A DNA stretch of 64,000 bases, taken from NCBI GenBank assembly GCA_965222715.1, contig OZ244961.1:462277-526276 (forward strand), in the 5' to 3' direction. This stretch comes from Minisyncoccota bacterium (GTDB taxonomy: Bacteria > Patescibacteriota > Minisyncoccia > Phycocordibacterales > JABMNX01). A program made the position numbers and the translations under genes. Positions 2,764 to 26,679 of the stretch are shown here, piece after piece (within the stretch, counting starts at the first letter, position 1; each line of letters starts with the position of its first letter). The notes under the pieces are model-generated. The model was not told the origin of the DNA. It searched no databases and saw only the letters and a list, made by a program, of their open reading frames with translations.

Positions 2764-3729
2764 CTAGCGTAAGGTGTTTTCTATAATATCGTGCATGTGC
2801 ACAAGTGCTATTGGCTTCCGTTCATCAGAAACTAAAAAAAGTGTAGTGACTTTATACTCTTCCATTTGGGATAATGCTTCTTTAAGACTTGCCTCTTGCG
2901 TAATTACGCGAGGATTCGGTGTCATCATGTCTTGAGCAGTTTTATTCTCTACATTCTTTTCTTTAAGTAAGAAGCGTCGTATATCTCCATCAGTAATTAT
3001 TCCAACTAAAGTTCCTTTTGAATCTATAACACCAGTGACTCCAAATTTCTTATCGGTCATCTCTACAAGCACCTCATGAAATGAATGAGACACCTCAACA
3101 AGTGGGAGTGTTATATCTTTTTGTATAACATCAGCTACTTTTGTAAAACTAAGACCAAGACTCCCACTTGGATGAAATTGTGCAAAATGTTTCTGCTCAA
3201 ATACTTCTGGAGAAGTAAGACCAGAAGCTAGGAGATCACCAACTACTAGTGTTGCCGCAGTACTTGCCATTGGCGCAGCATTAATTGGACACCCCTCATT
3301 ATCTATTTGTATATCGATACTTGATTCAGATATGGTGGCAAGTGTACTAGTGCTGCAACCAGTAATACTAACCACTTTAACCTCAAGGCTTTTTTCTAAA
3401 TATTGCACCAGACGAACAACTTCTTTTGTTTCGCCAGAAAATGAAATGGCTATAAGCACATCTCCTTTTGTCACAATACCTAAATCGCCGTGAACCGCTT
3501 CAACGGGATGTATAAAGACAGAAGGGTGACCAAGACTAGTGAGTGTCGCACTAATCTTCATACCAATAAAACCAGATTTGCCGATACCAGTAACTACGAT
3601 TTTTCCTGATCGTTTTTGAATGAGATCAATAGCTTCAATAATATGGGGTATCGAATTCTCAAGGTTAGTAACGCCAGATATCTCGCTCTCTAAAGTGCTG
3701 CGTATTCTTGATTCTATCGTTTTGTGCAT
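2764..3729 (-). CDS. KpsF/GutQ-family arabinose-5-phosphate isomerase (SIS domain + tandem CBS domains)
   Basis: VVTGIGKSGFIGMKISATLTSLGHPSVFIHPVEAVHGDLGIV is a typical SIS phosphosugar-binding motif. The C-terminal CBS pair (GVIDSKGTLVGIITDGDIRR) is present. Confidence 0.7.
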   Translation of the reverse strand: MHKTIESRIRSTLESEISGVTNLENSIPHIIEAIDLIQKRSGKIVVTGIGKSGFIGMKISATLTSLGHPSVFIHPVEAVHGDLGIVTKGDVLIAISFSGETKEVVRLVQYLEKSLEVKVVSITGCSTSTLATISESSIDIQIDNEGCPINAAPMASTAATLVVGDLLASGLTSPEVFEQKHFAQFHPSGSLGLSFTKVADVIQKDITLPLVEVSHSFHEVLVEMTDKKFGVTGVIDSKGTLVGIITDGDIRRFLLKEKNVENKTAQDMMTPNPRVITQEASLKEALSQMEEYKVTTLFLVSDERKPIALVHMHDIIENTLR

Positions 3730-3905
3730 TTGGCTACCCTTTAATTGGTAAAGTAATTAGTAAAGTGTATTCACTGTAATATATGTCTTGATTAATTAAT
3801 ACAGTATAACCTTTTGTATCACACAAAAGTTATATGGAAGAACTAGTTCATCTGATATTTTAGACGTATAGGAAATAGACCTCCTATCCCCTATAATCAG
3901 AAAGC

Positions 3906-5150
3906 ATGGTAAAAATGCGCAATAAAATATACTCAGCCCTTAGGTGGAGTGAGAAATATACAAAAACCGATATGCTCTACCTCACCAAAGGCGGTTTTTG
4001 GTTATTCTTCGGACAAGCTCTCGGTGTGTTTGTTTCACTTCTTTTGGCCATTGCATTTGCAAATTTAATTGAACCAGAGAAGTACGGAAACTATAAATAT
4101 GTACTTTCACTTGCTGCTATCATTGGTGCATTTTCATTAACAGGACTAAGTACAGCGGTTGTTCGAGCAGCAGCTCGCGGTGACGAGGGGACTCTTAAAT
4201 ATGCTTATAGACTTTCACTACTCTGGAGTGTAGGGATGATTCTCATATCAGGAATTGGTTCAATATATTACTTTCTAAATGAAAATTATTTTCTTTCGTT
4301 TTCACTTATTGTTATAGGTGCCACATCTCCTGTTATTTCTGCCAGTTCTTTATATAGACCATTTCTTTCTGGAAAGAAATTGTTTAAAGAGATGGCATTG
4401 TATGGTGTGCTACAAAGTACACTACCAAACATTGCGGTACTTTTAGGTATATTGATGCGCGCAGAACTTATTTACCTTGTCTGCCTATATTTTCTTACAA
4501 ATGCTATTACCGTATTCTTTCTTTACCAAAAGACTAAAAATTTTGTAGAAAACGAGCACATTGATACACAGAAAACACTACATATTGGCAAACATTTAAC
4601 GGTAATGGGCATTATGTCAAACATAGGAGGAAGGCTTGATAGTATTCTTATCTTCCAACTACTTGGTGGGGCGGAGCTTGCTATATACTCTCTTGCAGTT
4701 ACTTTCCCAGACTTAATTCGCGGTTCATTAAAAAATATTACATCTCTTGCCATACCCAAATTTGCACAGAAAACAAAAAGCGAGATGAAGTATGCGGTTT
4801 GGAGTAAAATGGGTATCTTTCTTTTGGTATCAGGAATAGTTGTTATTATGTATATCTTTTCTGCTCCTTATATTTTTAAGTTTCTTTTTCCTCAATACCT
4901 TGTGTCAATACAGTTTAGTCAGATATATGCACTATCGATTCTCACATCTTTCGTGCTTGCATCTGCATATTTTGATTCACAAGTTGCTGTAAAAGAGCGA
5001 TATATACTTAGTGTTACTAACAATGTAAATAAGATTATCGCAGTAGTTCTTGGAGTGTATTTTTTTGGTATTTGGGGGGCGATAGCTGCACGTTTAATTA
5101 CTCAAGTAATTAACTTTGCCCTTTCTGGAATTCTTATTTACCGAAACTAA
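3906..5150 (+). CDS. Wzx-like polysaccharide flippase (MOP/Polysacc_synt family)
   Basis: 414 aa with ~12 TM helices. Typical flippase topology and glycine-rich helices. Confidence 0.5.
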   Translation: MVKMRNKIYSALRWSEKYTKTDMLYLTKGGFWLFFGQALGVFVSLLLAIAFANLIEPEKYGNYKYVLSLAAIIGAFSLTGLSTAVVRAAARGDEGTLKYAYRLSLLWSVGMILISGIGSIYYFLNENYFLSFSLIVIGATSPVISASSLYRPFLSGKKLFKEMALYGVLQSTLPNIAVLLGILMRAELIYLVCLYFLTNAITVFFLYQKTKNFVENEHIDTQKTLHIGKHLTVMGIMSNIGGRLDSILIFQLLGGAELAIYSLAVTFPDLIRGSLKNITSLAIPKFAQKTKSEMKYAVWSKMGIFLLVSGIVVIMYIFSAPYIFKFLFPQYLVSIQFSQIYALSILTSFVLASAYFDSQVAVKERYILSVTNNVNKIIAVVLGVYFFGIWGAIAARLITQVINFALSGILIYRN

Positions 5151-5157
5151 GTTAAAC

Positions 5158-5868
5158 TTACTTTAGTAAATTTAAAAGTTTTTCTTTAATCTTTTCTAGA
5201 GATGTTTTTTCCTTCTCAAAGACAACAGTAAATATTTTTCTAACTACATTTTCTGGACACAACAAAGGCTCGACTGCATGCCAAGAATGATTCGTTCGAG
5301 TAAATAACAAGCTATAATTCTCACGATACGGGACCAGAATCTTTTCTGGAAAATCAGAAATGTCTGGCGCCGAATCACAGTTGAATTTTTCTTTATCATC
5401 TAAAATTATTGTCTCTCCACCCCACTCTTCTTCCCAGTTATCATCTGCGTTGAAATAAAATATGTGTGAACCCAACTTATTCTTACTATCACAATGAGGA
5501 GAAACAGAGCAGCCATTTACCGAATATTGCCATTGAAATCGCATATTGAAATTACGTGTACCAAACAGTCGCTCAACTTGAGTGCGGTATTCTCCTTCAC
5601 CTAACTCTCTTATAAATGAGTTCCATTCTTTAGAAACCCCAAGACTCTTCTCATATTTTAATTCATAACGATTGTGTGGCTTCTGACCATAGCCACGTTC
5701 TATGTTAAACGTCTTTGTAAAAAGAGAAATATCTGGAAGATTTTTTTCCAATTCATTAAAACCCTCCTTTGTGATTAAGTGCCTAAACACATGCCACGGA
5801 TATGGCTTTTTGCCTCTATATTCATCTCCAGAAATAGAGCTAAGTTTTGTGGTATCTATAAATTTCAT
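5158..5868 (-). CDS. 2OG-Fe(II) oxygenase superfamily protein
   Basis: H-x-D (SPHCDSK) ... H (HSWHAV) facial-triad arrangement in a ~230 aa soluble protein. Confidence 0.4.
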   Translation of the reverse strand: MKFIDTTKLSSISGDEYRGKKPYPWHVFRHLITKEGFNELEKNLPDISLFTKTFNIERGYGQKPHNRYELKYEKSLGVSKEWNSFIRELGEGEYRTQVERLFGTRNFNMRFQWQYSVNGCSVSPHCDSKNKLGSHIFYFNADDNWEEEWGGETIILDDKEKFNCDSAPDISDFPEKILVPYRENYSLLFTRTNHSWHAVEPLLCPENVVRKIFTVVFEKEKTSLEKIKEKLLNLLK

Positions 5869-6641
5869 GCTCTTTCAAAAATGTAGTTTTTGACCCCATT
5901 ACCTAATTCAAATTCATTAACAACATTGAAACTGTACTTTTTTACAATTTCAAATATTTCTTTTTTTTTCTCATCTTCAATTTCAATAAGCAAATGTTTA
6001 AGATTTTTATGAGCAAGTGTATTTTTGGCACCATTAAGTACATTAATTTCTGCACCATCAACATCAATCTTTATCATTGTTGGAATTGGAATATTAAAAA
6101 TACGTACACACTCATCAAGACTCATGACTAATAACTGTTGAGTACATGCATCTTTTTTCCTTTGGAATTCACTGAAAGTATGTGTTGCCCCCGAGGAGTT
6201 ATCGTCTAAAGAAAATGATTGAATAATGTTACCTACACCTAACACAAATGGAAGAGGTGTTATATTTCTATTTAATTTGTTAAGGAATATATTATCTTGA
6301 AGCGTTTCTATGTTTTTATACGACGGTTCAAACGCATAGACTTCTATCCCCAAAGATCCAGCAATGAGACTGTATGCACCGATATTTGCACCGATATCAT
6401 AAAAAACAGATTTTTTTTCACCACAAGATTCAAGCCAATTCACTGTCTCAGGTTCTTTTTTAACGCTATTTGCTCGAGTGTAGTATTCACGTAATGTCTG
6501 AGTTGTTATGTATATATCTTTCTTTGCATAATCAAGCTTTCTTACACCATACCAATGGCTTACAAGGCGCTTTATTTTAAAAACACCTAATAAAAATTTC
6601 CATTGAATTTGTTTAATTATAGCCATAAATATGCTATACAC
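5865..6641 (-). CDS. FkbM-family SAM-dependent methyltransferase
   Basis: VFYDIGANIGAYSLIAGSLGIEVYAFEPSYKNIETL matches the FkbM motif. Overlaps the upstream gene by 4 nt. Confidence 0.6.
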   Translation of the reverse strand: MYSIFMAIIKQIQWKFLLGVFKIKRLVSHWYGVRKLDYAKKDIYITTQTLREYYTRANSVKKEPETVNWLESCGEKKSVFYDIGANIGAYSLIAGSLGIEVYAFEPSYKNIETLQDNIFLNKLNRNITPLPFVLGVGNIIQSFSLDDNSSGATHTFSEFQRKKDACTQQLLVMSLDECVRIFNIPIPTMIKIDVDGAEINVLNGAKNTLAHKNLKHLLIEIEDEKKKEIFEIVKKYSFNVVNEFELGNGVKNYIFERA

Positions 6642-6658: not shown

Positions 6659-7543
6659 ATGAGAGTACTTACCAAAGAACAAAGAGATTTTTTTCATAAA
6701 AATGGGTATCTTCACCTAAAGAGTTTTTTTACACAAGAGGAAGTGGTGAGTTTCAGAAAAGGATGTCAATTAGACAAACCTGGTGATTCTATGTGTACAC
6801 AAGAATTTAGACACATCATGTTTTCACCTAAAATTATTGGTGTCATGAAAGACATTCTTGGAGAAGAAATTATTTATCCAGGACTCTCTTTAACTCGTAC
6901 AGGAGATTCTCCAAAGAAAGTAGGTAGTCGCAAGTTTCATGCCGATACCGAAGGAGATGATCTAGAGTTCTCTCATCCCTACCCAGTGATTAATACTGGG
7001 ATCTACCTACAAGACCACAAGAACTATAGTGGGTGTCTTAAAATAAGTCCAGGTTCACATAAGTGGCCATGTGTACTTACAGAATCAATTACTCAATCTC
7101 TTAAATTAATTATCAAAAGTCTTCTTAGAGGAGAATTTAAAAAAGCCTATAACATACTGAATTTGCATAAATCAGTGAATATACCATCAGAAGCAGGTGA
7201 TCTGATTATTTGGTATGTTCGCACACATCATTCAGGATATGGCGTGCGACTTAAATTTTTTAAAAATATCTCTCTTCCACCCGTAATTGAAAATTGGATA
7301 CCTTCTTTTTTGCGACTTCCTGATAATCCGAAGCGCGATGTTATGCTCTCAATATTCACTGCACCAAGTAAATATTTAGAAGAATATATTAGAGTACAAA
7401 TTAACAAAGACCGCCGCATTAATCACTACCTACATAATAAATGTCTAGATTCCCCTAAAATACAAAAAATGGCAGAGGAAGCTGGGATTGTAATTCGGAA
7501 CGATGGGTATTATAGAGCATTAAAAATAAATTCTAAGTCCTAA
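6659..7543 (+). CDS. Phytanoyl-CoA dioxygenase (PhyH)-family 2OG oxygenase
   Basis: N-terminal LTKEQRDFFHKNGYLHL. HxD (KFHADTEGDD) plus distal His (GSHKWP, HHSGYG). Confidence 0.45.
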   Translation: MRVLTKEQRDFFHKNGYLHLKSFFTQEEVVSFRKGCQLDKPGDSMCTQEFRHIMFSPKIIGVMKDILGEEIIYPGLSLTRTGDSPKKVGSRKFHADTEGDDLEFSHPYPVINTGIYLQDHKNYSGCLKISPGSHKWPCVLTESITQSLKLIIKSLLRGEFKKAYNILNLHKSVNIPSEAGDLIIWYVRTHHSGYGVRLKFFKNISLPPVIENWIPSFLRLPDNPKRDVMLSIFTAPSKYLEEYIRVQINKDRRINHYLHNKCLDSPKIQKMAEEAGIVIRNDGYYRALKINSKS

Positions 7544-8259
7544 TTTTCTTTTCTTATATAAACAAATAAACCAGCTGAAAAAAGTCCCGGCAAAATTTTA
7601 TTGAGGATAGGCACACCTTTATAGGAATATATTTTGTAATTTGTATACTGCTGTGCATTAAGCCACCATTTCATATCATTAAATGTCCAGAATCGTAAGT
7701 GTTCTGAAGGTGAAATTGACCACTGAGCTGGGAACTTACCAAACAGTAGACGCAGACGATAAGTAATGTACCCTGAGTTGGGAACCGAGAAAAAGACCGC
7801 TTTTTGTGATTTTCTATACGCCTCTTGAAGTGTTATCTCTGCACTCGGGATATGCTCGAGCACTTCAAATAAAAGATATATATCTGCTTCTGGCAATTTC
7901 TTAAAGTCTTCTTTTGAGACAATATTACTGTGAAAAGTCTTAATGCCTAATTTTTCCACCAAAGAAAGAGCAACTTCTGAAATATCAACCCCAATAACAT
8001 TGGTGAGCGATCTCTTTTTTTTAAGAAAATATAACAACCCCCCATCGCCACACCCAATATCAACCACGCTTGGATCTTCATTTTCCTTAATATATTTTTG
8101 TACAAATCTCACCCGCTCAACCTGCCAGTCATTTAAACCTGGTTCTCCATCAGGTCTTCGTGAAAGCCAGTAGTTATCATTGTTTTGCGTATCCTCTTGA
8201 GATATTTTCTTTTTGGGATAGAGGAAAATATCTTTTATGGTTTTTTTTAGTAGATGCAT
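7540..8259 (-). CDS. Class I SAM-dependent methyltransferase
   Basis: Motif I VVDIGCGDGGLLYFL. Confidence 0.6.
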   Translation of the reverse strand: MHLLKKTIKDIFLYPKKKISQEDTQNNDNYWLSRRPDGEPGLNDWQVERVRFVQKYIKENEDPSVVDIGCGDGGLLYFLKKKRSLTNVIGVDISEVALSLVEKLGIKTFHSNIVSKEDFKKLPEADIYLLFEVLEHIPSAEITLQEAYRKSQKAVFFSVPNSGYITYRLRLLFGKFPAQWSISPSEHLRFWTFNDMKWWLNAQQYTNYKIYSYKGVPILNKILPGLFSAGLFVYIRKEN

Positions 8260-8281: not shown

Positions 8282-9751
8282 CTACTTTAGCTCATTTTTA
8301 TATGTAATTGACTCTAATACATTTTTTAACAGTACTTTATTAGAACCAAACAATCTATCTTTGCGTTTTTCTGTAACCTCTTTTGGGGTCTTATAGAGAG
8401 CTTCAATCTTAAAACAAATATTTTCCAAGTTCAACCAATCAGCCAGATCATTAGCCACCATGCCTTCACCATAATCTGACGATGTTTTGAGCAAGGCAAT
8501 TGGTTTTTCGTACGCTATAAGATCATATAATAAAGTGGAGTACACTCCAACCGCTACGTCAACTTGGGCTATCGCCTCTTTCATATCTTCTAAAATTAGA
8601 ACACTAGTGTCCCCAGTAAGGTTGTATTCATCAAGCTGTTCCTTTTTTGAAACACCTGGCTTAACTTTAAATATAAGTTGAATATTAGAGCAGTTTTTTA
8701 AAGCATCAATAAAATGTAGTACTTCTTCTCTAGGAATTTCTGATTCGTACGGGATGAGTACACGAATCTTATTGTTTATTTTTCCCACCTGCGAACTCTT
8801 CACTTCTCTTTCTTGGGCTGCTACATGAAGTTCGTCATCCGTAAAATACGTACCAAGTCGCTTTAGTTCATCTTTCCAGTATTCACTCCACAGATACAAA
8901 ACATCAGGTTTTATTATCTCTCCACTAAAAGAATCATTTGTAAGATATCCTACATGGTACTTAGTAAAATGTCCGTGCTGAAAGGCGTATGTTGGTATAT
9001 TATTTAGCTTACATGCAAGTATCAACTCATAATAATTTCTTACATCATCTATGGTAAATAGAGTTTTTATATTGGATAGTTTTATAATCTTAGTCAAAAT
9101 TTTTACCCTAAAAATAAAAAAAGGGATTCTGTTGAGATAAGATAAAATTATTGGTTCAAACAACTCTTTCTCTTTTTTTGAGATATTTTGAGGATATATT
9201 AAATCACTTTCTTTTACCTTCTCTTCTGGTTTAAGAATATGAAAAAAAGAAAGTATTGAAAAAACAAAATCGATAGACTCTAAATAGATTGCTGGTCGTA
9301 ATCTTTTAAATATATTTATAATAGACGTTTTACTTGGTATGGTATGAAAAAACTCGACGTATTTTATAGAATTTTCGTCTAAGAAAGTGTAAACGCTCTC
9401 CAGTCTCATGTCGTTCCGTGAAGTTTTTGAGCTCACTTTGTCAACGGAGTATACACCTACTCTCCTTTTTGAAATTACAAGGAAAACTACGGAGAAAAAA
9501 GAATATGCCGCAAGAAAAATGTGTAGTAAAAAAACACGGCAATATCCTAAAAGACTAAAACTGGTATGAGCATCTTTTCCTGTCCTCAACTCATTAAATA
9601 GTAATGTGACCTGAAAACAATGCCAAACATTATATTTCCCATATAACACAAAGGATGAAAGTGGGTTATTTCTATACCTAACTTTATTTAGTTTTGCAAG
9701 TTGTTTTAGAGCTCTTTTTAGGTCGAGTGATTTCTTGGAAAAGTATTCCAT
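8282..9751 (-). CDS. Hypothetical membrane-anchored polysaccharide-biosynthesis protein (possibly TagF/capsule-synthesis-like)
   Basis: 489 aa. N-terminal hydrophobic segment. C-terminal region has YAFQHGHFTKYHVGYL. Family assignment is uncertain. Confidence 0.3.
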   Translation of the reverse strand: MEYFSKKSLDLKRALKQLAKLNKVRYRNNPLSSFVLYGKYNVWHCFQVTLLFNELRTGKDAHTSFSLLGYCRVFLLHIFLAAYSFFSVVFLVISKRRVGVYSVDKVSSKTSRNDMRLESVYTFLDENSIKYVEFFHTIPSKTSIINIFKRLRPAIYLESIDFVFSILSFFHILKPEEKVKESDLIYPQNISKKEKELFEPIILSYLNRIPFFIFRVKILTKIIKLSNIKTLFTIDDVRNYYELILACKLNNIPTYAFQHGHFTKYHVGYLTNDSFSGEIIKPDVLYLWSEYWKDELKRLGTYFTDDELHVAAQEREVKSSQVGKINNKIRVLIPYESEIPREEVLHFIDALKNCSNIQLIFKVKPGVSKKEQLDEYNLTGDTSVLILEDMKEAIAQVDVAVGVYSTLLYDLIAYEKPIALLKTSSDYGEGMVANDLADWLNLENICFKIEALYKTPKEVTEKRKDRLFGSNKVLLKNVLESITYKNELK

Positions 9752-14528: not shown

Positions 14529-15209
14529 TTACTTTTTCAATATAAAATGAAACGTATCGAAGTAAAAAAAACGTGCAAATATATATACTGGTATCGCTAT
14601 ATATCGAAATACACCTAAAGACTTTTGTATTTTTAACAACCGTATATCTAAAACCAAGAAGCCAACATCGTGCATTTTTTGCTTGGCGCGAGTAAATGTG
14701 TCGTAGTACATCTCATCTAAACGTTGTCTACCTGATCTATCTGAATAGTATTTATGTTTTCCAAAAAGTGATATGAATGAGCTCGACATAAAACGTGGAA
14801 TCCAATTTACAAAATATAAATCAAAATGTGGATCTTTGAAACAAAATCGATTTGGCACACTTATATATGCACACCCATTGCTATCAAGCACTCGATAAGT
14901 TTCTTTTAGTAACAACTCTGGATCAGAAACATGTTCAATAACCTCAGCAATATTTATAAAACCAAATTTTTTATCAGAAAAAGGGAGGTTTTCTGCTTTT
15001 CCTTCAATTAAAGTAATTTTTAGACCTTCTCTAGCAGCAACCTCTTTTGTTTTTTTAATATTTTCTGGGTTTATCTCTAATTCAACAACATTACCCCCTT
15101 TTTTACTAATATTTAATACGAAATCGCCTTTACCAGAACCAATATCAAGTATTTTTCTATCCAAGAGATCTGGTATATGTTCTGTGAGGTTTTCTATATG
15201 TGTTTTCAT
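14529..15209 (-). CDS. Class I SAM-dependent methyltransferase
   Basis: ILDIGSGKGDFVL motif I. Confidence 0.6.
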   Translation of the reverse strand: MKTHIENLTEHIPDLLDRKILDIGSGKGDFVLNISKKGGNVVELEINPENIKKTKEVAAREGLKITLIEGKAENLPFSDKKFGFINIAEVIEHVSDPELLLKETYRVLDSNGCAYISVPNRFCFKDPHFDLYFVNWIPRFMSSSFISLFGKHKYYSDRSGRQRLDEMYYDTFTRAKQKMHDVGFLVLDIRLLKIQKSLGVFRYIAIPVYIFARFFYFDTFHFILKK

Positions 15210-18137: not shown

Positions 18138-18569
18138 TTAGAATTTGTTGAGTAAATTAATTCCGTAAATAAAGAATTTTGCTCTACTTGGGCTTGTGTA
18201 GTGTCGTATCACAACTTCATTAGTCACTGGTCCCTTAATTAAGTAATGTTTTGTGGGAAGTATTTTTAAATTCTTAAGTATTGTGGCATAGCATGCTTGA
18301 TCAGTAAATTTTTTATGCATGTAATCTGTTTTTGCCAAGTAAGAAACGAAAGTATCAAAATCAAAGTTCTCGCGATTGTATAGCACAATACCTGAGTTAG
18401 CATTTGCTACCCTCTCGGATGTTTTGGTTCCATCCTTAAACTCAACATGTATGTATACATCTTCACCATTAGACATCATGAGAGACCTTTCAGCACCACG
18501 TTCAACCTCTTTATCAATTTCTATTGGTTGATGAAACCAAAGAATATCTGAATCTAGGATAAGTAACAT
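18138..18569 (-). CDS. Hypothetical protein with DXD motif (LILDSDILWF); possibly the C-terminal part of a disrupted glycosyltransferase
   Basis: 143 aa. An adjacent 91-aa ORF (18755-19030, same strand) may be the N-terminal part of the same gene. Confidence 0.3.
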   Translation of the reverse strand: MLLILDSDILWFHQPIEIDKEVERGAERSLMMSNGEDVYIHVEFKDGTKTSERVANANSGIVLYNRENFDFDTFVSYLAKTDYMHKKFTDQACYATILKNLKILPTKHYLIKGPVTNEVVIRHYTSPSRAKFFIYGINLLNKF

Positions 18570-19032
18570 TTTTTTGTCAGAAACAAAATACGGATCAATG
18601 AGTTTCTTTGATTGAAATTTTGTATATGTTTCTCGAAATTTTTTTAAAGTTGGATACGCGTTAAGTTTCTCTCCGTGTATTTCTAAAAAAGTATTGTTAT
18701 CAACAATAGTAGAAGACGGGAAGAGTCTTTTAAATATCTTCTTATCTTCCCTACTTAAAGTTCCATCATTATGTAAAAAAGCTTTCCGATTGACTGGGCA
18801 ACACTATAATAGGAGGCAAGAGACCAAAGAGCAATTAAAAAATCTTGATGGCCAGTGAGCATATGTATTGATAGATCACCATTCGTAATAGGTTTTTCAA
18901 AAGATTTTTTTGATTTCAGAATTCTTGGTGCAACAATATATCTCTGCCAAAGGAAAAAGAAACCTCGTCGTATACCATACAGAGAGAATGCCAGTTTTAT
19001 ATAAAAAATTTCACGCTTAATTTTTTTCATAG

Positions 19033-20016
19033 CTATACTATATGTTTGGAAAGAAGTTGTATAAGTTTTTGTAAAGAATGTAGCTCAACAATGTAGCTTC
19101 TTGTCTCCTTTTTGCTATTTAGCGCTTCGGTAAAGCTGTGGTTTACAGGATATTCGGTATCGTTAAAAGCCTCATTGGTGGTATAGACCGGTACATTCAT
19201 TGAAAGTGCTTCAAGAACAGCCTTATCAAGGCTCCCAGTAACGCTAAGATTAATGAATACTTTCGCCTTCGCATAAAATGGTGGTAATTCACCTTGTGGC
19301 ACATCACCAACTATTTCAACTTGATTATTCAATTCTCTCTGTTCTACCTCATTCAGAAACCTATCTCTATATATAAAATCTTCTTTAGTAACAGGTGAGC
19401 CAACAATGACTAGCTTAAAAGAAGGATAGTCCTTAAGTATATCAAGCATCTTAATAATTTGTTTTGACTCTGAAATTCGACCAACTGTCAAAATAGTGTC
19501 GTCTTTTCTGTTAGAATACTTCTCTGGAGAAAATAGTGAAGTGTCAATACCATGCCCAACAACCATAACTTTCTTACTCTTCAGACGAAAACTTTTTTTA
19601 GATGCTGTGAATATAGTATCCACAAACCCCTCTGCAACACGAAGTGAGAATGTTACTGACTTATGCGTATACCAGATGGAAATTTTTTTACCCAAAATTC
19701 TCCACAACAAACCACCGAGAATAACGTACACTTGATTCATATGCACAAAAATTGAATCGTATTTTTTACGTTCTTTCCATATATAACGATAAAAATTATA
19801 TATGTATTTTAATCGTGAAACTCCACCCTCTTTACCCAAAGAAAGTACCTGAACGTTTTCAGGAAGTGTGTACTCACCCTTCTCTAAGCAGATCACAATA
19901 ATGGATTCACACTGTGTTGCAAACTCTTCAATCCATCGGTGGAAAAAGCCGAGAATTGGATCGTTCTTGTCTACTTTCTGTGTACAAATTAAAAGCTTCA
20001 TAGTGATTCCTGCCAA
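19033..20016 (-). CDS. Glycosyltransferase family 4-like
   Basis: 327 aa. GT-B C-terminal region. Confidence 0.5.
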   Translation of the reverse strand: MAGITMKLLICTQKVDKNDPILGFFHRWIEEFATQCESIIVICLEKGEYTLPENVQVLSLGKEGGVSRLKYIYNFYRYIWKERKKYDSIFVHMNQVYVILGGLLWRILGKKISIWYTHKSVTFSLRVAEGFVDTIFTASKKSFRLKSKKVMVVGHGIDTSLFSPEKYSNRKDDTILTVGRISESKQIIKMLDILKDYPSFKLVIVGSPVTKEDFIYRDRFLNEVEQRELNNQVEIVGDVPQGELPPFYAKAKVFINLSVTGSLDKAVLEALSMNVPVYTTNEAFNDTEYPVNHSFTEALNSKKETRSYIVELHSLQKLIQLLSKHIV

Positions 20017-20897
20017 CGCTTAGCCCACTCTTCTTTTGATAAAAGTTTTATACGAAGAGTAGCAGTTGGTTTTTCTGTAAGCACACGAACTACATCCGCT
20101 ACTATTTTTTCTGGTGAAGTAATATGAGCGCCCGCCTCTTTTGCGACACCAACGTCATATGAGACAACCGGCACACCTGACGCAAGTGCCTCAATGATAC
20201 TGACACCAAAACTTTCGTATGGAGAAGTACTTAATACCACATTAGTCATTGATAAATGTGGGAGTGGGTCATCCCACCCGTGAAATGTGACCGGTAGATT
20301 TTTTGCCGCTTTCTTGAGGTCTTCCCTCATACTTCCATCACCAAGCATAGTGAGTTCTGCATTAATACCAGCATCTCTAACCTTCTTAAGTACTGAGAGT
20401 GCTTCAAGAGGGTTCTTCTCTTTTTCAAATCGACCGATCCAAAGTATGCGAGCGTCAGTATGCGCTTTTCGTTTAATATTTCTAAAGCGATCAAGATTAA
20501 CAAATACTGGGAGTATTGAGATTTTTGAATTACTATACTTTATTACCTCTTTCTGTATACGCTCTGATACAACTCGTATACTATGAGCTCTTTTGAGTAC
20601 AAAGTGGGCGCAGGTTCGGCGCAGTACCTTTTGTGTGTGCAAAAGAGTGTGCACCTGCACATTAAGCTTACTGCCCTTTCTCCAAGCAATATAAAGAGCA
20701 AAGAGACCTCGCCAAAATGGATCTTGCACTGTCACTACATCAAAATCTCCTCCTGGTATTTCTGGAAATACACTTCCTTTTCCCCAAAAGACTACCTCAA
20801 GTCTATCTACTGCATTTTTTTGTAAGATAAAACGCTGATAGGCTTCTGTGCCTTCAGAAAAGATATTTGTATCACCAGTAATCATTAAAACATTCAT
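19998..20897 (-). CDS. Glycosyltransferase family 4
   Basis: ESFGVSIIEALASGVPVV motif. Confidence 0.6.
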   Translation of the reverse strand: MNVLMITGDTNIFSEGTEAYQRFILQKNAVDRLEVVFWGKGSVFPEIPGGDFDVVTVQDPFWRGLFALYIAWRKGSKLNVQVHTLLHTQKVLRRTCAHFVLKRAHSIRVVSERIQKEVIKYSNSKISILPVFVNLDRFRNIKRKAHTDARILWIGRFEKEKNPLEALSVLKKVRDAGINAELTMLGDGSMREDLKKAAKNLPVTFHGWDDPLPHLSMTNVVLSTSPYESFGVSIIEALASGVPVVSYDVGVAKEAGAHITSPEKIVADVVRVLTEKPTATLRIKLLSKEEWAKRWQESL

Positions 20898-22006
20898 ATC
20901 TTCAACGTGGTAACAAACTTTTTAACCATATTTTCAGGGGTATGTTGGGCTAATCGCTCTTTACCATTACGCACAAGTCGAGTTGCTAACGACTCATTGT
21001 CGAGAATTTGACTCACTGCCCTAAATAATTCTTTCTTATTATTATATTTCACCAAAAGTCCATTTTTTTCATCAGTGATTAATTCAGGGTTCCCACCCAC
21101 GTTTGTTGTCACAATTGGTGTACCAATCCCCATAACTTCCAGTAGTTGATGCGAAAAACCTTCATAATTTGTATTTAAGACAAACACATCGGCCATGCGG
21201 ATGTATTTAAAGAGGACTGCTTGCTCGAGTGAGCCAGTGAGTGCAACATGTTCGTGAAGTTTTTTCTTCTCGACCATCTTTTCAAGGCGACTCATATCAG
21301 GACCATCGCCTGCAATCAAGAGTTTAAATGATGGGTACTTCTTAATAAATTCAGGGACTAGTGAAATAAGGGTATCAAACCCTTTCCAGGGCACTAATCG
21401 ACCTGCACTCACCACAATCTTCCCATTAAATTTGAGCATTCTGCGAAAATCTGCTTTTCGTCCTTGAAACGGAATCTCTTCTGGAACTGAGTGGATAACA
21501 ATTATCTTTTTTACATCAGTCACCCCCCAATTTTTGATCACACCTTTAAAATATTCACTCGGTACAATAATTTTCTCTGCATACTCTGCAATAGTTTTTT
21601 GTATTTTTTTAAGTATAAGTACCGGTACTAAATATTCATCCCCTTTCTTTGAAAACACATCAAGGTGATCAGTTACTTTAAAACGCTGTGTTCCCTGCTC
21701 CCACGCATAATCCCCCGCGATACGTACAAAAAATCGCTTGGAGCGCATTTTTGCAACAAGCGCAGCAGGAACGCCAACACTCACTGGGTCAAGCGCATAA
21801 ACAAGGTCAGCAACCTGAGCTTTTTTGTACAGCTGAAAGGTATATACCAGATGCCGAATTCCCCACGGAAGATGGGAAACTGAGTTAAACGGCGCCACCG
21901 ATACTGAAATCTGGTGTTTAGGGAGATGCTCTTCGAGCATCTTAACGTATGTCGCCGGACCCCCTATTTGAGGTGCATATGCCCCTGTTGCGATAAGTAT
22001 GTGCAT
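20894..22006 (-). CDS. Glycosyltransferase family 4
   Basis: EGFSHQLLEVMGIGTPIVTTNVGGNPE motif. N-terminal MHILIATGAYAPQIGG. Confidence 0.65.
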   Translation of the reverse strand: MHILIATGAYAPQIGGPATYVKMLEEHLPKHQISVSVAPFNSVSHLPWGIRHLVYTFQLYKKAQVADLVYALDPVSVGVPAALVAKMRSKRFFVRIAGDYAWEQGTQRFKVTDHLDVFSKKGDEYLVPVLILKKIQKTIAEYAEKIIVPSEYFKGVIKNWGVTDVKKIIVIHSVPEEIPFQGRKADFRRMLKFNGKIVVSAGRLVPWKGFDTLISLVPEFIKKYPSFKLLIAGDGPDMSRLEKMVEKKKLHEHVALTGSLEQAVLFKYIRMADVFVLNTNYEGFSHQLLEVMGIGTPIVTTNVGGNPELITDEKNGLLVKYNNKKELFRAVSQILDNESLATRLVRNGKERLAQHTPENMVKKFVTTLKI

Positions 22007-22181: not shown

Positions 22182-22730
22182 ATGAAAATTCTCGTACTCA
22201 CACCACTTTTCCCGCCAGATATTGGAGGCTCAGCGCCATATATAAAAGAATTGGTGACCCGTCTCTCAAACAGGAAATATTCGGTTACTGTTCTCGCCTA
22301 TGGATGTCTCCCCGAAGACGTTCCTGGAGTGATGTTTAGATGTGTTAATAAAAAAATTCCTACGTTCTTGAGAATATTCCTGTTTAGTATGAAAACATTT
22401 CGTGAGGCACGAAAACATGATTTCATATATGCAGAAAACGGACCTTCGGTAGAATTACCCCTACGACTATTGAAGTTTTTTCTAAAAACACCACTAGTTT
22501 TTCACATAGGAGACCACCCTGCATATACATACGGACAAACAAAACCATTTCTAAATAAAAATCAAAAGGTGGTAGAGAGGTATGCACATACAGTCGTGGA
22601 AGAAACTCCGGAACCACGTCCAGAAATACTTCCACATAAAAAGTACCCGACAGATTTGTTTAAAGCGTATGAGAAAAGCTGGGACACGCATTTAGAAAAA
22701 CTTGAGCATATATTTCATTATGTCAGATAA
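22182..22730 (+). CDS. GT4 N-terminal domain only (truncated glycosyltransferase fragment)
   Basis: MKILVLTPLFPPDIGGSAPYIKELV matches the Glyco_trans_4 N-terminal domain. No C-terminal GT1 domain. Overlaps the next gene by 29 nt in another frame. Confidence 0.4.
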   Translation: MKILVLTPLFPPDIGGSAPYIKELVTRLSNRKYSVTVLAYGCLPEDVPGVMFRCVNKKIPTFLRIFLFSMKTFREARKHDFIYAENGPSVELPLRLLKFFLKTPLVFHIGDHPAYTYGQTKPFLNKNQKVVERYAHTVVEETPEPRPEILPHKKYPTDLFKAYEKSWDTHLEKLEHIFHYVR

Positions 22731-23826
22731 TTACGAAATACAGTGGAGGGAGTACTGTACTAAGGAATTACAACGTATAACCCCCATACTAAAAAGCTTG
22801 GGTTTTGAACTTGAAGATACACAAACCCACCTCGGAGGTGAACGCTACCTTATGCAATCCGTAACGACAACTAGTGGCAAGAAGCTTATCCTAGTTGGTC
22901 GAAAGGTAAACACTCGCAAAAGAGTAATTATAAAAGCAACGTCTGATGTAGAAGGAAAGAAAGAAATAGAGCACGAACGAACGAGCCGCTCAGCACTTCA
23001 AAAACTTAACTTTGCGTATGACGTTTTTTTTGCCCCACAGGAAATACTTTTTACAGAAAAAGATGGGTTTACTATTTCTATCCAAGAATTTCTAGAGCAA
23101 GAATGTCAATTCTTGGATAGACCGATCGATGAGCAATTCACCTTTGCATTGAAAGCGTTTAAAGCTCAAGAGAGCGCTCACGCTACTACGAATTCACATA
23201 TACAGTTCATTAAAAAATATTTTGACAGTAAGGGTGCTCGTGAATATACACAGCTTTTTACTACTTTTTCTCATTCTATAGAAACATATTACAAAGAAGA
23301 CCCCGAGAAAATAGAGCTTATTGAACGAGCAGTAAAGTTGCTAAAAGATAACAAAAAAACAATTGAACAATATTCTGGATTTCTTACACACACTGATTTT
23401 GTACCTCACAATTTTCGCATAGTAAATCGTGTAATGTATCTTCTCGATTATTCGTCGGTGCGTTTTGGAAACAAGCACGAAGGGTGGGCACGATTTATAA
23501 ACTTTATGGAACTTTATAATAGAGAACTCGCACAGATAGTTGTAGAGTATGTTGAGAAAAACCGTTCAAAAGAAGAGGTTCTTTCATTAAAACTTATGCG
23601 AATGTACCGACTAGGAGAAATTATTCACTACTACATTTCAGTACTTCCCAAGAGTAGCGGTAACGTGCTAACCCTTAACACAGAAAGAGTCCGTTTGTGG
23701 ACGTACGTACTTGAGAGTGTACTTGCTGACAAAGCTCCCTCACAAGAAATAATAGATCAGTATAAAAAAACACGAGACTCTCTACGAAGTGCCGAAGAGA
23801 AACTACGACAAAAAGGACTTCATTAG
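22702..23826 (+). CDS. Protein-kinase-like phosphotransferase (APH/ChoK fold)
   Basis: HTDFVPHNFRIVN (HxDxxxxN catalytic loop) followed by LLDYSSVRFGN (D-containing activation motif). Confidence 0.4.
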   Translation: MSIYFIMSDNYEIQWREYCTKELQRITPILKSLGFELEDTQTHLGGERYLMQSVTTTSGKKLILVGRKVNTRKRVIIKATSDVEGKKEIEHERTSRSALQKLNFAYDVFFAPQEILFTEKDGFTISIQEFLEQECQFLDRPIDEQFTFALKAFKAQESAHATTNSHIQFIKKYFDSKGAREYTQLFTTFSHSIETYYKEDPEKIELIERAVKLLKDNKKTIEQYSGFLTHTDFVPHNFRIVNRVMYLLDYSSVRFGNKHEGWARFINFMELYNRELAQIVVEYVEKNRSKEEVLSLKLMRMYRLGEIIHYYISVLPKSSGNVLTLNTERVRLWTYVLESVLADKAPSQEIIDQYKKTRDSLRSAEEKLRQKGLH

Positions 23827-23833: not shown

Positions 23834-24517
23834 TTAATTTTCTTCGTATTTTTGAATTAAATCTTCCCACTCTTTTAAAAAGACATCTTGTCGATCTGTC
23901 TTTAAGATATCCATCGCACGACGAGCAAGAATATGGTTATTATTCTTTGGCCTATCACCGCGATGTGGCTTTTCAAAAATAACAACGTCTTCCATTGTTG
24001 TATCATCAAATAATGTACTCGAGGGCAATATACTTATCGTGTGCCGAAATACTGCATATTTATCATTAGACGTGATACAAGATAATACTGTTCTAATACT
24101 ACGTGGTGCGTGAGACGCAACCGCAATAAGTTTTACATTAAAAATATCTTTATCGAGACATTTATCTAGGAAAGTTGGGACTTCTTGTCGTGTATTCTGT
24201 GTTTCGGTATCAATATAGGAACGATCATTAAGGAATGTTTTTAATTCTTCTGGTGGACATTCACAAATTTTTGCCAAATCATCAATATGCTCTAGAGCAT
24301 ATTTATATGTATACTCAGATTCTTTAAGTCCATCCTTCTTAGATGCACCAGTACCCCAGAAAATAAAATTTGCTTGAGATTCCCAAGCAGCTTCTATACC
24401 TCGCGGAATCGTACCCCAATCACCGTTCAGAGGATCGCCCCAAACAATTTTATTCCAATTACCAGCCTCTAGATGTAATCCGTGAATGAGTACTGCAGTT
24501 TTGTCTTTTATATTCAT
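23834..24517 (-). CDS. Hypothetical protein
   Basis: 227 aa. Begins ...TAVLIHGLHLEAGNWNKIVWGDP. No confident family. Confidence 0.3.
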   Translation of the reverse strand: MNIKDKTAVLIHGLHLEAGNWNKIVWGDPLNGDWGTIPRGIEAAWESQANFIFWGTGASKKDGLKESEYTYKYALEHIDDLAKICECPPEELKTFLNDRSYIDTETQNTRQEVPTFLDKCLDKDIFNVKLIAVASHAPRSIRTVLSCITSNDKYAVFRHTISILPSSTLFDDTTMEDVVIFEKPHRGDRPKNNNHILARRAMDILKTDRQDVFLKEWEDLIQKYEEN

Positions 24518-24555
24518 TTTATTTAAAGTATTACGTTATCCTCTTTAATACAAGT

Positions 24556-26679
24556 TTAATTTTTCATTACTGACCCAAACACATCGTTTTTCATTGCTTT
24601 TGCAATTTTCTCCCAATTATACTCTTCTTCAATCATTTTTCGACCATTTCCCGATAACTCTCTTGCCTTTTCTGGTTGTTCTATAACACTTTCTACTGCT
24701 TTTGCGATTGCTTTTGGGTCCTCTTGCGGTACGATCCACGCCGTTTTACCGTCGATAGCATAATCTGCAATACCGCCAACCCCTGTTGTTACAAGTGGCA
24801 AGCGAGATGCAAGTGCTGAAACAAATGCATTACCCAGTCCTTCCGAACGTGACGGTGCAACAAATATGTCACATGCTTTTCGATACAAAGTCACTTCCAT
24901 TCGATCAACACGCCCAGTAAAAATAACTCGACCTCGCAATCTTAATTCACGCACTAAATCTCGTAATTTTGGCTCTTCTTCTCCATCACCAACAATAACA
25001 AGTTTAATATGATTGGGTAAATATTGAAGTGCTTTGATTGCAATGTCGAAGCCTTTTTGATGCTCGAGACGTGAAGTGTTGATTAAGAAAATTTCTCCTT
25101 CTTTTTTACCTAATTCTTTTTTAATATCATCAACTTCTGCTTGTGTGTAGGACTCATTGAAGTCATTTGGGTTAGCACCATTTTTAACCAACACAATCTT
25201 TCCTTTATACCCCATTGTACGTGCCCACGTACTTAAGTAATTTGAAATACTTTGTATAACTGTTGCTTTTGTAAACACCTTGGTAAAAACAGGCCACACT
25301 GGCTTCATTACCTTTTCAATGTGTTCCGTTGGGTCGCCCTCTTGTAGGGTTAAAATGTAAGGCGTACGCGGGAAAAGTATTTTAAATAAAACAGCTGGAA
25401 TACCTGCTGAATGTGCCATCATCGCCCAAATACCATCATATTTATAACGCATATTAAGTTGGATGGCTTTGAGCGTAGCGAGTATTTGAAATAAATACTT
25501 ATTACTACGTAATATCAGTTTATTTCCATAATCTTCAAATGTTGGGTTTTGTAAGCCAAATCCAATACGATGAACGAGTACATTCCCATATCGCTCTGTG
25601 CGAGGTATTTTTGAATTCCACAAACAAGTTACGAGATGGAATTCAATATCAGCTGGGTCAATCCTGTCAGTTATTTCTTTAATGGCGGGCTCTGCGCCAC
25701 CGTGAAAATTCGGGTAATACACGAGTGAAAATGCTAAGACACGTTTTTTTGGTTTTAACTTAGAAAAGTCATACTGCTCTCCCGAACGCATACCACTTTC
25801 TGTTTCTTTTATATTTTGAATATATTCTTTAAGTGTGTGTTTTTGTTCCCACCCCAATGCCTTCAGTTTTGAAGTATCAACTGCTTCTGAAGAACGAGTT
25901 GATTTTGTTGCCATTGAGTATTGAATATGACCTCCAAACATACGCGCAACATCAAGTAAACTGTACGATTCTCTTGCACAAATGCCGTATTCGTCTCCCG
26001 AACCTTTTTCACTTGCAAGAAAAATCCCTTCCACTGTATCAAGTACATGTGTAAAGGCACGCTTTTGATTCCCTGCGCCAGAAATACGATGCGGTTCATT
26101 ATGTAGCCAGTTTTGATGCAAAATCTCAATAAAAGTCCCGTATCGATCCCCTCGTTCACGAGGTCCATATACATTATAAAAATAGACAGTCGCATACTGT
26201 AGTTCATACCAAAAAGCATACTGATTTACTAAATCACTCATCGATGCCTTTGACCAAGTGTACGGTGCCAAATTTTTCCCTTCAACTCCATCTAAAATAC
26301 GGTGCGCAAACTTAGTTGATGATCCTGCATATACAAGCTTACAACGTCTATCACGCCAAAATTCCAACACGGCAAGTGTTCCTTCTAGATTTAACTCGAA
26401 TGTCACAGATGGTTCTGCTAGCGAATGTCGCACTCGTGAGTACTCACCTAAGTGGTAAACAATGTCAGGGTCTTCGGAAATGTGTTTTTGAATGTTTTTC
26501 GTGTGTCCCTCTCGGTATTCAACTCCCTCGACGTGATTATCTTTTGAGCCAGTGAAATAGTTATCAAGAGAAATGACTCGGTACCCTTCTTGTACTAATC
26601 GCTCACAGAGGTGTGAGCCAATAAAACCGGCGCCACCAGTGACTACTGCTAATTTTTTCTCAGTCATAATTACAGGCAT
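24556..26679 (-). CDS. Fusion protein: NAD-dependent sugar-nucleotide epimerase/dehydratase (extended SDR) + C-terminal GT4 glycosyltransferase
   Basis: N-terminus VVTGGAGFIGSHLCERL...LDNYFTG and a YxxxK (YTWSK) motif. C-terminal RSEGLGNAFVSALASRLPLVTTGVGGIADYA GT4 motif. 707 aa. Confidence 0.6.
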   Translation of the reverse strand: MPVIMTEKKLAVVTGGAGFIGSHLCERLVQEGYRVISLDNYFTGSKDNHVEGVEYREGHTKNIQKHISEDPDIVYHLGEYSRVRHSLAEPSVTFELNLEGTLAVLEFWRDRRCKLVYAGSSTKFAHRILDGVEGKNLAPYTWSKASMSDLVNQYAFWYELQYATVYFYNVYGPRERGDRYGTFIEILHQNWLHNEPHRISGAGNQKRAFTHVLDTVEGIFLASEKGSGDEYGICARESYSLLDVARMFGGHIQYSMATKSTRSSEAVDTSKLKALGWEQKHTLKEYIQNIKETESGMRSGEQYDFSKLKPKKRVLAFSLVYYPNFHGGAEPAIKEITDRIDPADIEFHLVTCLWNSKIPRTERYGNVLVHRIGFGLQNPTFEDYGNKLILRSNKYLFQILATLKAIQLNMRYKYDGIWAMMAHSAGIPAVLFKILFPRTPYILTLQEGDPTEHIEKVMKPVWPVFTKVFTKATVIQSISNYLSTWARTMGYKGKIVLVKNGANPNDFNESYTQAEVDDIKKELGKKEGEIFLINTSRLEHQKGFDIAIKALQYLPNHIKLVIVGDGEEEPKLRDLVRELRLRGRVIFTGRVDRMEVTLYRKACDIFVAPSRSEGLGNAFVSALASRLPLVTTGVGGIADYAIDGKTAWIVPQEDPKAIAKAVESVIEQPEKARELSGNGRKMIEEEYNWEKIAKAMKNDVFGSVMKN

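Follow-up and report, generated by a model that had tools for sequence, protein, structure and literature searches.

A widespread Parcubacteria glycan locus with two AsnB-type amidotransferases and a lineage-restricted family of predicted GT-B fold

The surface-glycan locus described here lies in a 64,000-nucleotide (nt) stretch of the genome of a Minisyncoccota bacterium (contig OZ244961.1; the stretch is hereafter the window, and its own numbering is used throughout). It occupies 26 kb at positions 512–26679, adjoins murB, and is a mosaic, low-GC glycan locus of the Wzx/Wzy type, a real and well-conserved surface-glycan locus widespread in Parcubacteria. We think it fairly likely, with a probability of roughly 0.6, that it encodes the core of a Wzx/Wzy-type assembly pathway whose product would be methylated, hydroxylated and amidated, using a transferase for 3-deoxy-D-manno-oct-2-ulosonic acid (Kdo) or a similar sugar and two AsnB-type amidotransferases. 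A decorated surface glycan is the best reading because the AsnB genes stand in a glycan operon context, their products miss the cut-off of the housekeeping asparagine synthase model NF006949, and both have replaced E348 and D384. An earlier sequence-only reading of this DNA, which had proposed a heavily decorated surface glycan, is therefore partly supported; its general outline stands, while its gene counts, its AsnB duplication, its analogy to WbpS and PseA and its claim of unusual density fail.

Extent, gene content and relatives of the locus

A flippase, a Wzy_C-domain protein and several glycosyltransferases (GTs) co-occur in the locus, as expected of a Wzx/Wzy system. GC content is 0.32–0.35 over 4–20 kb against 0.42–0.45 in the flanks, low GC being usual for exchangeable glycan loci. 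The N-terminus of murB, evident from a MurB-like translation, lies at about 1–240 (minus strand) at the start of the window; since the Wzy_C-TPR gene adjoins it, the left border is placed at that gene. With the Wzy_C-TPR gene at 512–2719, the locus extends leftward beyond position 2764, where the interval of the sequence-only reading had begun. The right end is formed by an epimerase–GT4 fusion at 24556–26679. Adjacent genes in the open reading frame (ORF) listing overlap by 1–8 nt, which suggests translational coupling. ORF calls were checked by Pfam and NCBIfam scans against curated cut-offs, giving the following genes.

512..2719, minus: Wzy_C (O-antigen ligase/polymerase-like) membrane domain with TPR repeats (Wzy_C 72.5 bits, and TPR families)
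2764..3729, minus: KpsF/GutQ sugar-phosphate isomerase with SIS and CBS domains (TIGR00393, 271.3 bits; cut-off 203.7)
3906..5150, plus: Wzx-type flippase, Polysacc_synt (PF01943, 64.1 bits; present in 26 of 31 related loci)
5158..5868, minus: 2-oxoglutarate (2OG)–Fe(II) oxygenase, 2OG-FeII_Oxy_3 (PF13640, 30.8 bits; cut-off 27)
5865..6641, minus: FkbM methyltransferase (TIGR01444, 83.4 bits; cut-off 37.7; also PF05050)
6659..7543, plus: PhyH-family 2OG oxygenase (PF05721, 47.8 bits; cut-off 22)
7540..8259, minus: MT23a, a class-I S-adenosylmethionine (SAM) methyltransferase, Methyltransf_23/MetW-like (PF13489, 55 bits)
8282..9751, minus: 489-residue protein of an unnamed, lineage-restricted family, predicted GT-B fold (no Pfam match)
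9821..11614, plus: AsnB1 amidotransferase, GATase_7 and Asn_synthase (Pfam, NCBIfam)
11614..12468, plus: GT8-like glycosyltransferase of GT-A type (PF01501, a weak 28.6 bits; cut-off 24.3)
12473..13375, minus: class-I SAM methyltransferase, Methyltransf_23 (PF13489, 79.7 bits), with a possible N-terminal zinc ribbon
13368..14507, minus: GT9, heptosyltransferase family (PF01075, 60.5 bits)
14529..15209, minus: MT11, a class-I SAM methyltransferase, Methyltransf_11 (PF08241, 72.7 bits)
15213..16310, minus: GT4 (PF00534, 67.2 bits), overlapping the end of AsnB2 by 4 nt
16307..18133, minus: AsnB2 amidotransferase with a canonical glutaminase site (Asn_synthase 271 bits, GATase_7 152 bits)
18138..19030, minus: GT-A-like gene (DSD motif) with a single frameshift; a three-frame translation joins ORFs 18755–19030 and 18138–18569
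19033..20016, 19998..20897 and 20894..22006, minus: three consecutive GT4 genes (Glycos_transf_1, 56, 73.8 and 138.8 bits)
22182..22730, plus: N-terminal half of a GT4 (PF13579, 29.9 bits; cut-off 29.7), C-terminal domain absent
22702..23826, plus: 374-residue ORF with an APH-like HxDxxxxN motif (HTDFVPHNF; aminoglycoside/choline-kinase-like), no family, overlapping the GT4 half
23834..24517, minus: 227-residue ORF without family assignment (no Pfam, NCBIfam or PDB match)
24556..26679, minus: NAD-dependent epimerase/dehydratase–GT4 fusion (PF01370, 138.2 bits; PF00534, 138.7 bits)
40726..42087, minus: Bac_transf, a candidate initiating phosphoglycosyltransferase outside the cluster (PF02397, 182.4 bits), flanked by an epimerase (39656–40720) and a GT4 (42352–43512), likewise outside it

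Much of what the sequence-only reading had named is confirmed by these scans: two AsnB-like genes, each with a GATase_7 and an Asn_synthase domain, two 2OG/PhyH oxygenases, the GT9 and the epimerase–GT4 fusion. Of its methyltransferases the FkbM enzyme holds, while the four SAM-dependent ones come down to three of class I (7540–8259, 12473–13375 and 14529–15209). Its seven or more GT4 genes were an over-count; four intact genes, one N-terminal half and the fusion make six at most, and a seventh, at 42352–43512, lies outside the interval that it covered. KpsF, Wzx, the GT8-like gene, the 489-residue gene, the frameshifted GT-A-like gene and Wzy_C-TPR did not figure in its list.

Related loci, cited below by L numbers, were gathered by ortholog look-ups and by a metagenome scan with the 489-residue family, and were mapped by tblastn. 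The locus type recurs in at least 30 other contigs of the candidate phyla radiation (CPR, or Patescibacteria), and close homologs carry the source names Patescibacteria group, Candidatus Paceibacterota, Niyogibacteria, Giovannonibacteria and Parcubacteria. These names place the bacterium in the Parcubacteria group of the small-genome CPR; Wzx/Wzy-type glycan clusters are common in this lineage. Given this recurrence, and since the glycosyltransferase richness of Parcubacteria has been noted before (PMC5220378), the density of tailoring genes, thought unusual for a small genome in the sequence-only reading, is not so. The arrangement is best described as two conserved modules with what appear to be swappable accessory genes. 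In 31 related loci, the order is GT8-like (reverse), optionally AsnB1 (reverse) and KpsF (forward), the 489-residue gene and MT23a (both forward) and, further along, Wzx (reverse) and Wzy_C-TPR (forward). Module B comprises the pairs AsnB1–GT8-like and 489-residue gene–MT23a, which diverge from each other, with KpsF nearby; it often adjoins MurB and SecA genes. Module A runs GT4-GT4-AsnB2-GT4-MT11-GT9 in related loci, and in the window it is a minus-strand operon, GT4-GT4-GT4-(broken GT-A)-AsnB2-GT4-MT11-GT9-MT23, whose final gene is the methyltransferase at 12473–13375. The synteny of MurB, Wzy_C-TPR and Wzx is repeated in L001 and L003, and Wzy_C-TPR occurs in 17 related loci.

Among the accessory genes, the PhyH/FkbM/2OG trio recurs in L092, L105, L108 and L112, the loci whose Wzx is nearest to that of the window (49–62% identity, against about 30–44% elsewhere). 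This sharing of a window-like flippase fits a modification of the lipid-linked glycan before flipping. The FkbM and 2OG genes overlap by 4 nt, again suggesting translational coupling, and the nearest PDB sequence match of the PhyH protein is EctD (1.3e-08). KdoO, an Fe/2OG-dependent Kdo 3-hydroxylase (PMC8533242), may serve as a loose precedent for the oxygenases of the locus.

The AsnB pair

Both AsnB proteins are homologous to Escherichia coli AsnB (1CT9) and human asparagine synthetase (ASNS; 6GQ3) over their full length, and their glutaminase (GATase_7/GATase_6) and Asn_synthase domains score above the gathering thresholds (91.5 and 127.8 bits in AsnB1, 152.2 and 271 bits in AsnB2). Each passes only the broad TIGR01536 model (cut-off 267.1; AsnB2 470 bits). 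The equivalog of housekeeping asparagine synthase B, NF006949, is missed by both, at 166.3 bits for AsnB1 and 324.3 for AsnB2 against a cut-off of 499. For a census of residues, 120 orthologs of each paralog were aligned to E. coli AsnB, whose numbering is adopted here; at 90% clustering, at least 120 orthologs were available per protein, 42–59% identical for AsnB1 and 53–60% for AsnB2. Every ungapped ortholog sequence has Cys1 (107 for AsnB1, 116 for AsnB2), and both window proteins begin with MC. The pyrophosphate (PP)-loop, SGG(L/I)DSS, is conserved among the orthologs of both, and the two clades share with the E. coli and human enzymes Cys1, N74, G75, D98, the SGGxDS loop, D351, E352, K429 and K449. 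In contrast, E348 has become D (or N), and D384 has become S in AsnB2 and N in AsnB1, the alignment near 384 being less certain; of the 120 AsnB2 orthologs, 119 carry D at position 348 and 100 carry S at 384. True asparagine synthetases conserve both E348 and D384, and the human counterpart of E348, E364, is essential (PMC6748925). The missed NF006949 cut-off and the replaced E348 and D384 thus set both proteins apart from the housekeeping synthetases, a clustering that the sequence-only reading had named as the outcome that would count against it.

A neighbor-joining tree (200 bootstraps, rooted on E. coli AsnB, with unlabelled AsnB-like genes included) recovers the AsnB1 orthologs as monophyletic (100% bootstrap), with an intermediate form from locus L136 as their sister (100%). 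A wider group unites AsnB1 and AsnB2 with further AsnB-like genes of Patescibacteria and leaves out 29 from other phyla (94.5%); the AsnB1 branch is the longer of the two. These sequences suggest that the gene was duplicated long ago within Patescibacteria and that AsnB1 then diverged. The local duplication implied by the sequence-only reading is not borne out: the two proteins are 32% identical, fall into separate ortholog groups and belong to separate conserved gene modules.

The chief peculiarity of the pair is the donor pocket of AsnB1. In human ASNS, a network of R48, V52 (through its backbone), N74, G75, E76 and D96 recognizes glutamine and stabilizes the thioester, and it has equivalents in E. 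coli (PMC6748925). AsnB2 retains this network, R49/V53/N74/G75/E76/D98, in full; C1, R49, N74, G75, E76 and D98 are kept in 116–120 of its 120 orthologs, alongside the PP-loop. Of the 120 AsnB1 orthologs, 119 carry L for R49, R for V53 and Q for E76. N74, G75 and D98 are kept, so that L49/R53/Q76 alters three of the six network residues. The triad is present in all 18 AsnB copies that adjoin the 489-residue module. It occurs in none of a control set of about 100 AsnB-like genes from other phyla, 24–32% identical, taken from among the matches listed and bearing generic AsnB motifs; there, R occupies position 49 in 99 of 101 and E occupies position 76 in almost all. The best 150 representatives at 50% identity reveal a wider L49 superclade, with 24 LRQ, 15 LRE, 26 LTE and about eight other combinations at the three positions. 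The AsnB clade lacking R49 is far broader than the LRQ type of the window, with members at about 5205 in L136 and about 8230 in L112 (proteins P0341–P0463). At least one LTE copy, that of L136, also adjoins a 489-residue gene, which suggests that the pocket evolved stepwise. Judged from these residue patterns, AsnB1 probably recognizes the amino-acid end of its donor differently, and the retained catalytic residues argue that amide hydrolysis was probably kept. R53 may hold the substrate carboxylate in place of R49.

Gene context complements the residue patterns. As the sequence-only reading had observed, both AsnB genes stand beside glycosyltransferases and methyltransferases, and their orthologs do likewise in other Patescibacteria. 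AsnB1 diverges from the 489-residue gene across a 69-nt spacer, and its stop is overlapped by 1 nt by the start of the GT8-like gene, which is found in at least 22 related loci. The GT8 family includes uronosyltransferases. From family chemistry and this context, a plausible acceptor of AsnB1 is the carboxylate of an ulosonic acid, or of a uronic acid added by the GT8-like enzyme. AsnB2, by its conserved site, most likely uses glutamine-derived ammonia to amidate a sugar carboxylate, and the same reasoning from chemistry and context would place its acceptor somewhere on the module A glycan. In L007 (a complete Niyogibacteria genome), L008 and L009, the neighbors of the AsnB2 orthologs are invariably GT4, GT2, PMT_2 and methyltransferase genes, and in L131 and L137 an AsnB2-type gene adjoins the GT8-like gene in place of AsnB1. 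An association of AsnB1 with KpsF (14 of 16 versus 7 of 12 loci) was too weak to claim.

Several characterized systems offer points of comparison. The AsnB-family enzymes WbpS and WbqG make uronamides, for which there is genetic evidence, and convert a carboxylate to an amide via an acyl-adenylate (PMC7468200); the same chemistry would be expected of the window AsnBs. Together with PGN_1234 (O-antigen and A-LPS loci), WbpS and WbqG share with them the N-terminal nucleophile (Ntn) glutaminase plus PP-loop synthetase architecture and a place within polysaccharide loci beside wzx and glycosyltransferase genes. Unlike these enzymes, both window AsnBs fall below the cut-off of the WbpS/WbqG model TIGR03108 (eps_aminotran_1; 200.1 bits for AsnB1 and 432.9 for AsnB2 against 816.9), and AsnB1 carries L49, R53 and Q76 instead of R, V/I and E. 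The analogy to WbpS is weakened accordingly, as is the proposal of uronic or nonulosonic acid targets, since the 64-kb window holds no pathway gene for either sugar class. That to PseA fares no better, as no N-acetyl-sugar amidotransferase family (PseA/WbpG-type) is found among the 7 and 9 NCBIfam matches of AsnB1 and AsnB2 at E ≤ 1e-3. The PseA-type acetamidino enzymes belong to a family other than AsnB. The best PDB sequence match of AsnB2 is the AsnB-family hydroxyamidotransferase TsnB9 (7YLZ, 3.4e-53), which acts on a carboxylate other than that of aspartate; it reportedly works in natural-product biosynthesis, with no glycan context.

The 489-residue family and its proposed link to Kdo

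The 489-residue protein belongs to a CPR-only family. Its roughly 80 homologs carry no Pfam domain and no annotation beyond hypothetical protein, and D104, R116, E133, D235, Q258, H259 and E336 are invariant among them. AlphaFold2 predicts a GT-B fold (predicted local distance difference test score, pLDDT, 94.8), and the protein bears a long hydrophobic N-terminal helix. Its conserved downstream partner is MT23a, present in 22 related loci, and KpsF lies directly upstream of it in about 24. By family assignment, KpsF/GutQ is an isomerase of the arabinose-5-phosphate type, the first step of Kdo synthesis, and it is the sole acidic-sugar pathway gene of the cluster.

In relatives, the association extends to the remainder of the Kdo activation pathway. 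L099 has an operon KpsF–489-residue gene–MT23a–KdsB–KdsA, and L118 an operon KpsF–489-residue gene–KdsA–MT23a. In L104, KdsC, a KpsF-like gene and KdsA lie on the opposite strand beside the 489-residue gene. A KdsB-like gene directly follows the 489-residue gene in L131, L136, L137 and L139, and further KdsB-like genes occur in L122, L124 and L126. The Kds genes scanned with NCBIfam, those of L099, L104, L118 and L122, pass curated cut-offs: KdsA with 328–381 bits against 242, KdsC with 153 against 107, and KdsB with 175 and 157 against 155.2 on the equivalog and 321 against 234 and 250 against 193 on subfamily models. The KdsB-like calls in L124, L126, L131, L136, L137 and L139 are tblastn only. 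L122 also holds, at 452–2757, a gene of the 3-deoxy-D-arabino-heptulosonate 7-phosphate (DAHP)-synthase type (NF006421, 413 bits) in place of the KdsA type. KdsB and a KdsC-like phosphatase share its operon, which adjoins SecA and the glycan module, and its product may serve as an alternative ulosonic-acid synthase.

A dedicated transferase is usually encoded within the operon that activates its sugar. The position of the 489-residue gene inside the KpsF–KdsA–KdsB(–KdsC) operons of relatives leads to our reading of the family, which most likely acts as a transferase on CMP-Kdo or on a similar ulosonic acid. Like the established Kdo transferases WaaA (GT30) and KpsC/KpsS/WbbB (GT107/GT99), it would be a glycosyltransferase (here of predicted GT-B fold) and is linked, in relatives, to CMP-Kdo operons. 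The locus at large likewise recalls the inner-core toolkit of lipopolysaccharide (LPS), namely KdsD/A/C/B, the GT9 enzymes WaaC/F/Q, the GT4 WaaG, the GT8 enzymes WaaJ/O, WaaL and KdoO, in that it combines GT9, GT4, GT8-like, Wzy_C and 2OG oxygenase genes. When the families were compared with the Waa proteins of E. coli K-12 by hhalign, the GT9 matched WaaQ (99.6% probability) and WaaU (97.4%), the GT4 matched WaaG, and the GT8-like family matched WaaJ weakly (77.5%); Wzy_C-TPR matched none of them, WaaL included. After this comparison, a WaaZ-like identity for the GT8-like protein was no longer considered.

Several observations weigh against this assignment and the assembly scheme built on it. 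The 489-residue family had no match among the same Waa proteins, WaaA included, and no Kdo transferase of a known family (GT30, GT99 or GT107) was found. The structural matches of the 489-residue model are generic, in that NeuC and UDP-GlcNAc 2-epimerases score equal to glycosyltransferases. KdsA, KdsB and KdsC are absent from the 64-kb window, as is a UDP-sugar dehydrogenase, of which the related loci contain one (L001); synthesis of an acidic sugar is thus undemonstrated from the sequence at hand. AsnB1 is present in 12 of 25 related loci with a GT8-like gene and absent from 13, which argues that it is an optional decoration gene of the module, and both AsnBs miss the model of the known uronamide-forming enzymes, as noted above. 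A search of the literature found nothing relevant linking CPR to Kdo, O-antigen ligase or asparagine synthase, and for no CPR organism did it turn up biochemical data or a glycan structure. One published Parcubacterium genome reportedly lacks kdsA and lpxC, and the CPR envelope has been described as unresolved (PMC5220378).

Proposed assembly, rival readings and significance

The scheme that we favor builds on what gene content, family membership, synteny, residue patterns and predicted fold show; all substrates, the carboxylates that would be amidated and the occurrence of Kdo in the bacterium itself are inferred from them. A phosphoglycosyltransferase would start a lipid-linked oligosaccharide. 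None is encoded within 512–26679, the sole candidate in the window being the unlinked Bac_transf gene at 40726–42087, 14 kb away. The GT4, GT9, GT8-like and other GT-B enzymes would extend the chain in the cytoplasm, where SAM-dependent methylation, 2OG-dependent hydroxylation and ATP-dependent amidation would modify it, the last at carboxyl groups. By family chemistry, each AsnB would adenylate a carboxylate, which ammonia would then attack. AsnB1, with its altered donor recognition, would probably amidate an acidic sugar, either Kdo or a uronic acid from the GT8-like enzyme. Wzx would flip the product, and Wzy_C-TPR would polymerize or ligate it outside the membrane. A bolder version is rather doubtful in our judgment: that Parcubacteria, thought to be LPS-less, make a Kdo-containing, LPS-core-like glycan without lipid A, that the 489-residue protein is a new Kdo transferase, and that the L49/R53/Q76 AsnB amidates an ulosonic or uronic carboxylate, possibly from a donor other than free glutamine.

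Other readings bear on the same genes. Gram-positive bacteria (Firmicutes and Actinobacteria), which are monoderm, are well known to use AsnB-family enzymes annotated as asparagine synthase (AsnB, AsnB1, LtsA) on an envelope carboxylate, amidating meso-diaminopimelate (mDAP) in Listeria, B. subtilis, L. plantarum and Corynebacterium (PMC8554201, PMC5485061). One or both window AsnBs could by extension amidate peptidoglycan, at mDAP, D-iso-glutamate or a D-Asp bridge, the genes simply lying in a cell-envelope neighborhood; the adjacent murB, an ftsW in the window and the fact that both proteins pass only the broad TIGR01536 would all be accommodated. However, both AsnB genes overlap or abut glycosyltransferase genes, and glycosyltransferase and methyltransferase neighbors accompany them in more than ten independent loci. 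The mDAP-amidating AsnB genes are not known to be embedded in glycosyltransferase operons. The optional occurrence of AsnB1 in its module also fits decoration better than wall building, and we regard a peptidoglycan target as quite improbable. Still less probable is that AsnB2 is simply the asparagine synthetase of the cell, fortuitously placed in the cluster. It does score 470 bits on TIGR01536 with a complete glutaminase site and PP-loop, and no second asparagine synthetase was recognized in the window. Against this stand its shortfall on NF006949 (324 versus 499), the near-uniform E348D and frequent D384S of its orthologs, the conservation of its glycosyltransferase-flanked operon, and its grouping with Patescibacteria AsnB-like genes to the exclusion of the 29 from other phyla.

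Two further readings each concern a single protein of the locus. PglL-type O-oligosaccharyltransferases carry a Wzy_C domain, and Wzy_C-TPR could be such a PglL/PilO-like enzyme, moving the oligosaccharide en bloc to pilins or to a surface protein with Lamin-tail (LTD) and PKD domains. Its Wzy_C domain is fused to TPR repeats, typical protein-binding modules; an LTD-PKD protein flanks the cluster in both the window and L009; and no chain-length regulator is found among the annotated genes. Set against these points, a Wzy_C domain alone does not tell polymerase, ligase and oligosaccharyltransferase apart, and Wzy_C-TPR found no counterpart in WaaL. We think this reading rather unlikely; it would alter the final acceptor alone and leave the cytoplasmic chemistry the same. 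The other concerns AsnB1, whose N-terminal domain might no longer yield ammonia from glutamine, the enzyme taking its nitrogen instead from free ammonia or from some other amide or amine, or having become a ligase of another kind. The family-wide replacement of three of six glutamine-network residues and the existence of the L49 superclade, with its LRQ, LRE and LTE sub-types, would be in keeping with such a loss, which is nonetheless unlikely: Cys1, N74, G75 and D98 persist in essentially all AsnB1 members, which argues that thioester chemistry continues, and R53 may substitute for R49.

Parts of the locus and its surroundings deserve mention in their own right. The frameshifted GT-A-like gene at 18138–19030 has an unbroken homolog in L010 (8984–9865), there upstream of an AsnB gene, and is itself either a pseudogene or an assembly error. 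The segment 22182–24517 looks like a lineage-specific insertion that cut short a GT4 gene; the GT4 half at 22182–22730 is probably a remnant, the 374-residue kinase-like and 227-residue ORFs have no Pfam, NCBIfam or meaningful PDB sequence match, and no ORF of the segment has a tblastn counterpart in related loci. Directly beyond the right end of the locus, the LTD-PKD protein is encoded at 26714–29873 (minus), with a gene for a VirD4/TraG-like coupling ATPase next to it. The window encodes a second LTD protein at 55993–58551 (minus), and in L009 an LTD-PKD protein likewise flanks the glycosyltransferase cluster. The protein beside the locus could be a target of glycosylation. Also near the locus is a DUF4015 putative glycosyl hydrolase (30163–31491, minus; 302 bits). 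The rRNA genes are unlinked, with 16S at 34751–36210 and 23S at 45934–49666 (minus) separated by about 10 kb that contain SecDF, the epimerase, the Bac_transf phosphoglycosyltransferase, GT4, FtsW and other protein-coding genes. The 23S gene is enlarged, at 3733 nt against a model of 2925 positions; its region 47300–48900 covers only model positions 717–1888, leaving about 430 nt extra. Inside this extra sequence, especially at 48089–48261, are two tRNA-like elements on the same strand (Rfam, 50 and 61.9 bits), a tRNA-Thr(CGT) and a "tRNA-Phe" with the unusual anticodon AAA. A 187-residue protein at 59207–59770 (minus) has a PaaX-middle/Cas2-like domain (PF20803, 65.8 bits; CRISPR_Cas2, 23.9 bits).

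As a plain glycan cluster, the locus is ordinary; its interest lies in the donor-site variant of AsnB1 and the CPR-only family of predicted GT-B fold, both arrived at computationally. The make-up of the CPR envelope is an acknowledged unknown (PMC5220378), and the host-attached life of these bacteria makes their surface chemistry matter. The locus provides three handles on it: a family-specific enzyme of predicted GT-B fold genetically tied to CMP-Kdo synthesis, two distinct AsnB-type amidotransferases of which one has an altered donor site, and interchangeable hydroxylase and methylase cassettes whose occurrence tracks the flippase. Amidation of an acidic sugar, if it takes place, would neutralize its charge. 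Kdo in a lineage devoid of lipid A, if true, would call for caution over the use of kdsA as a marker of LPS.

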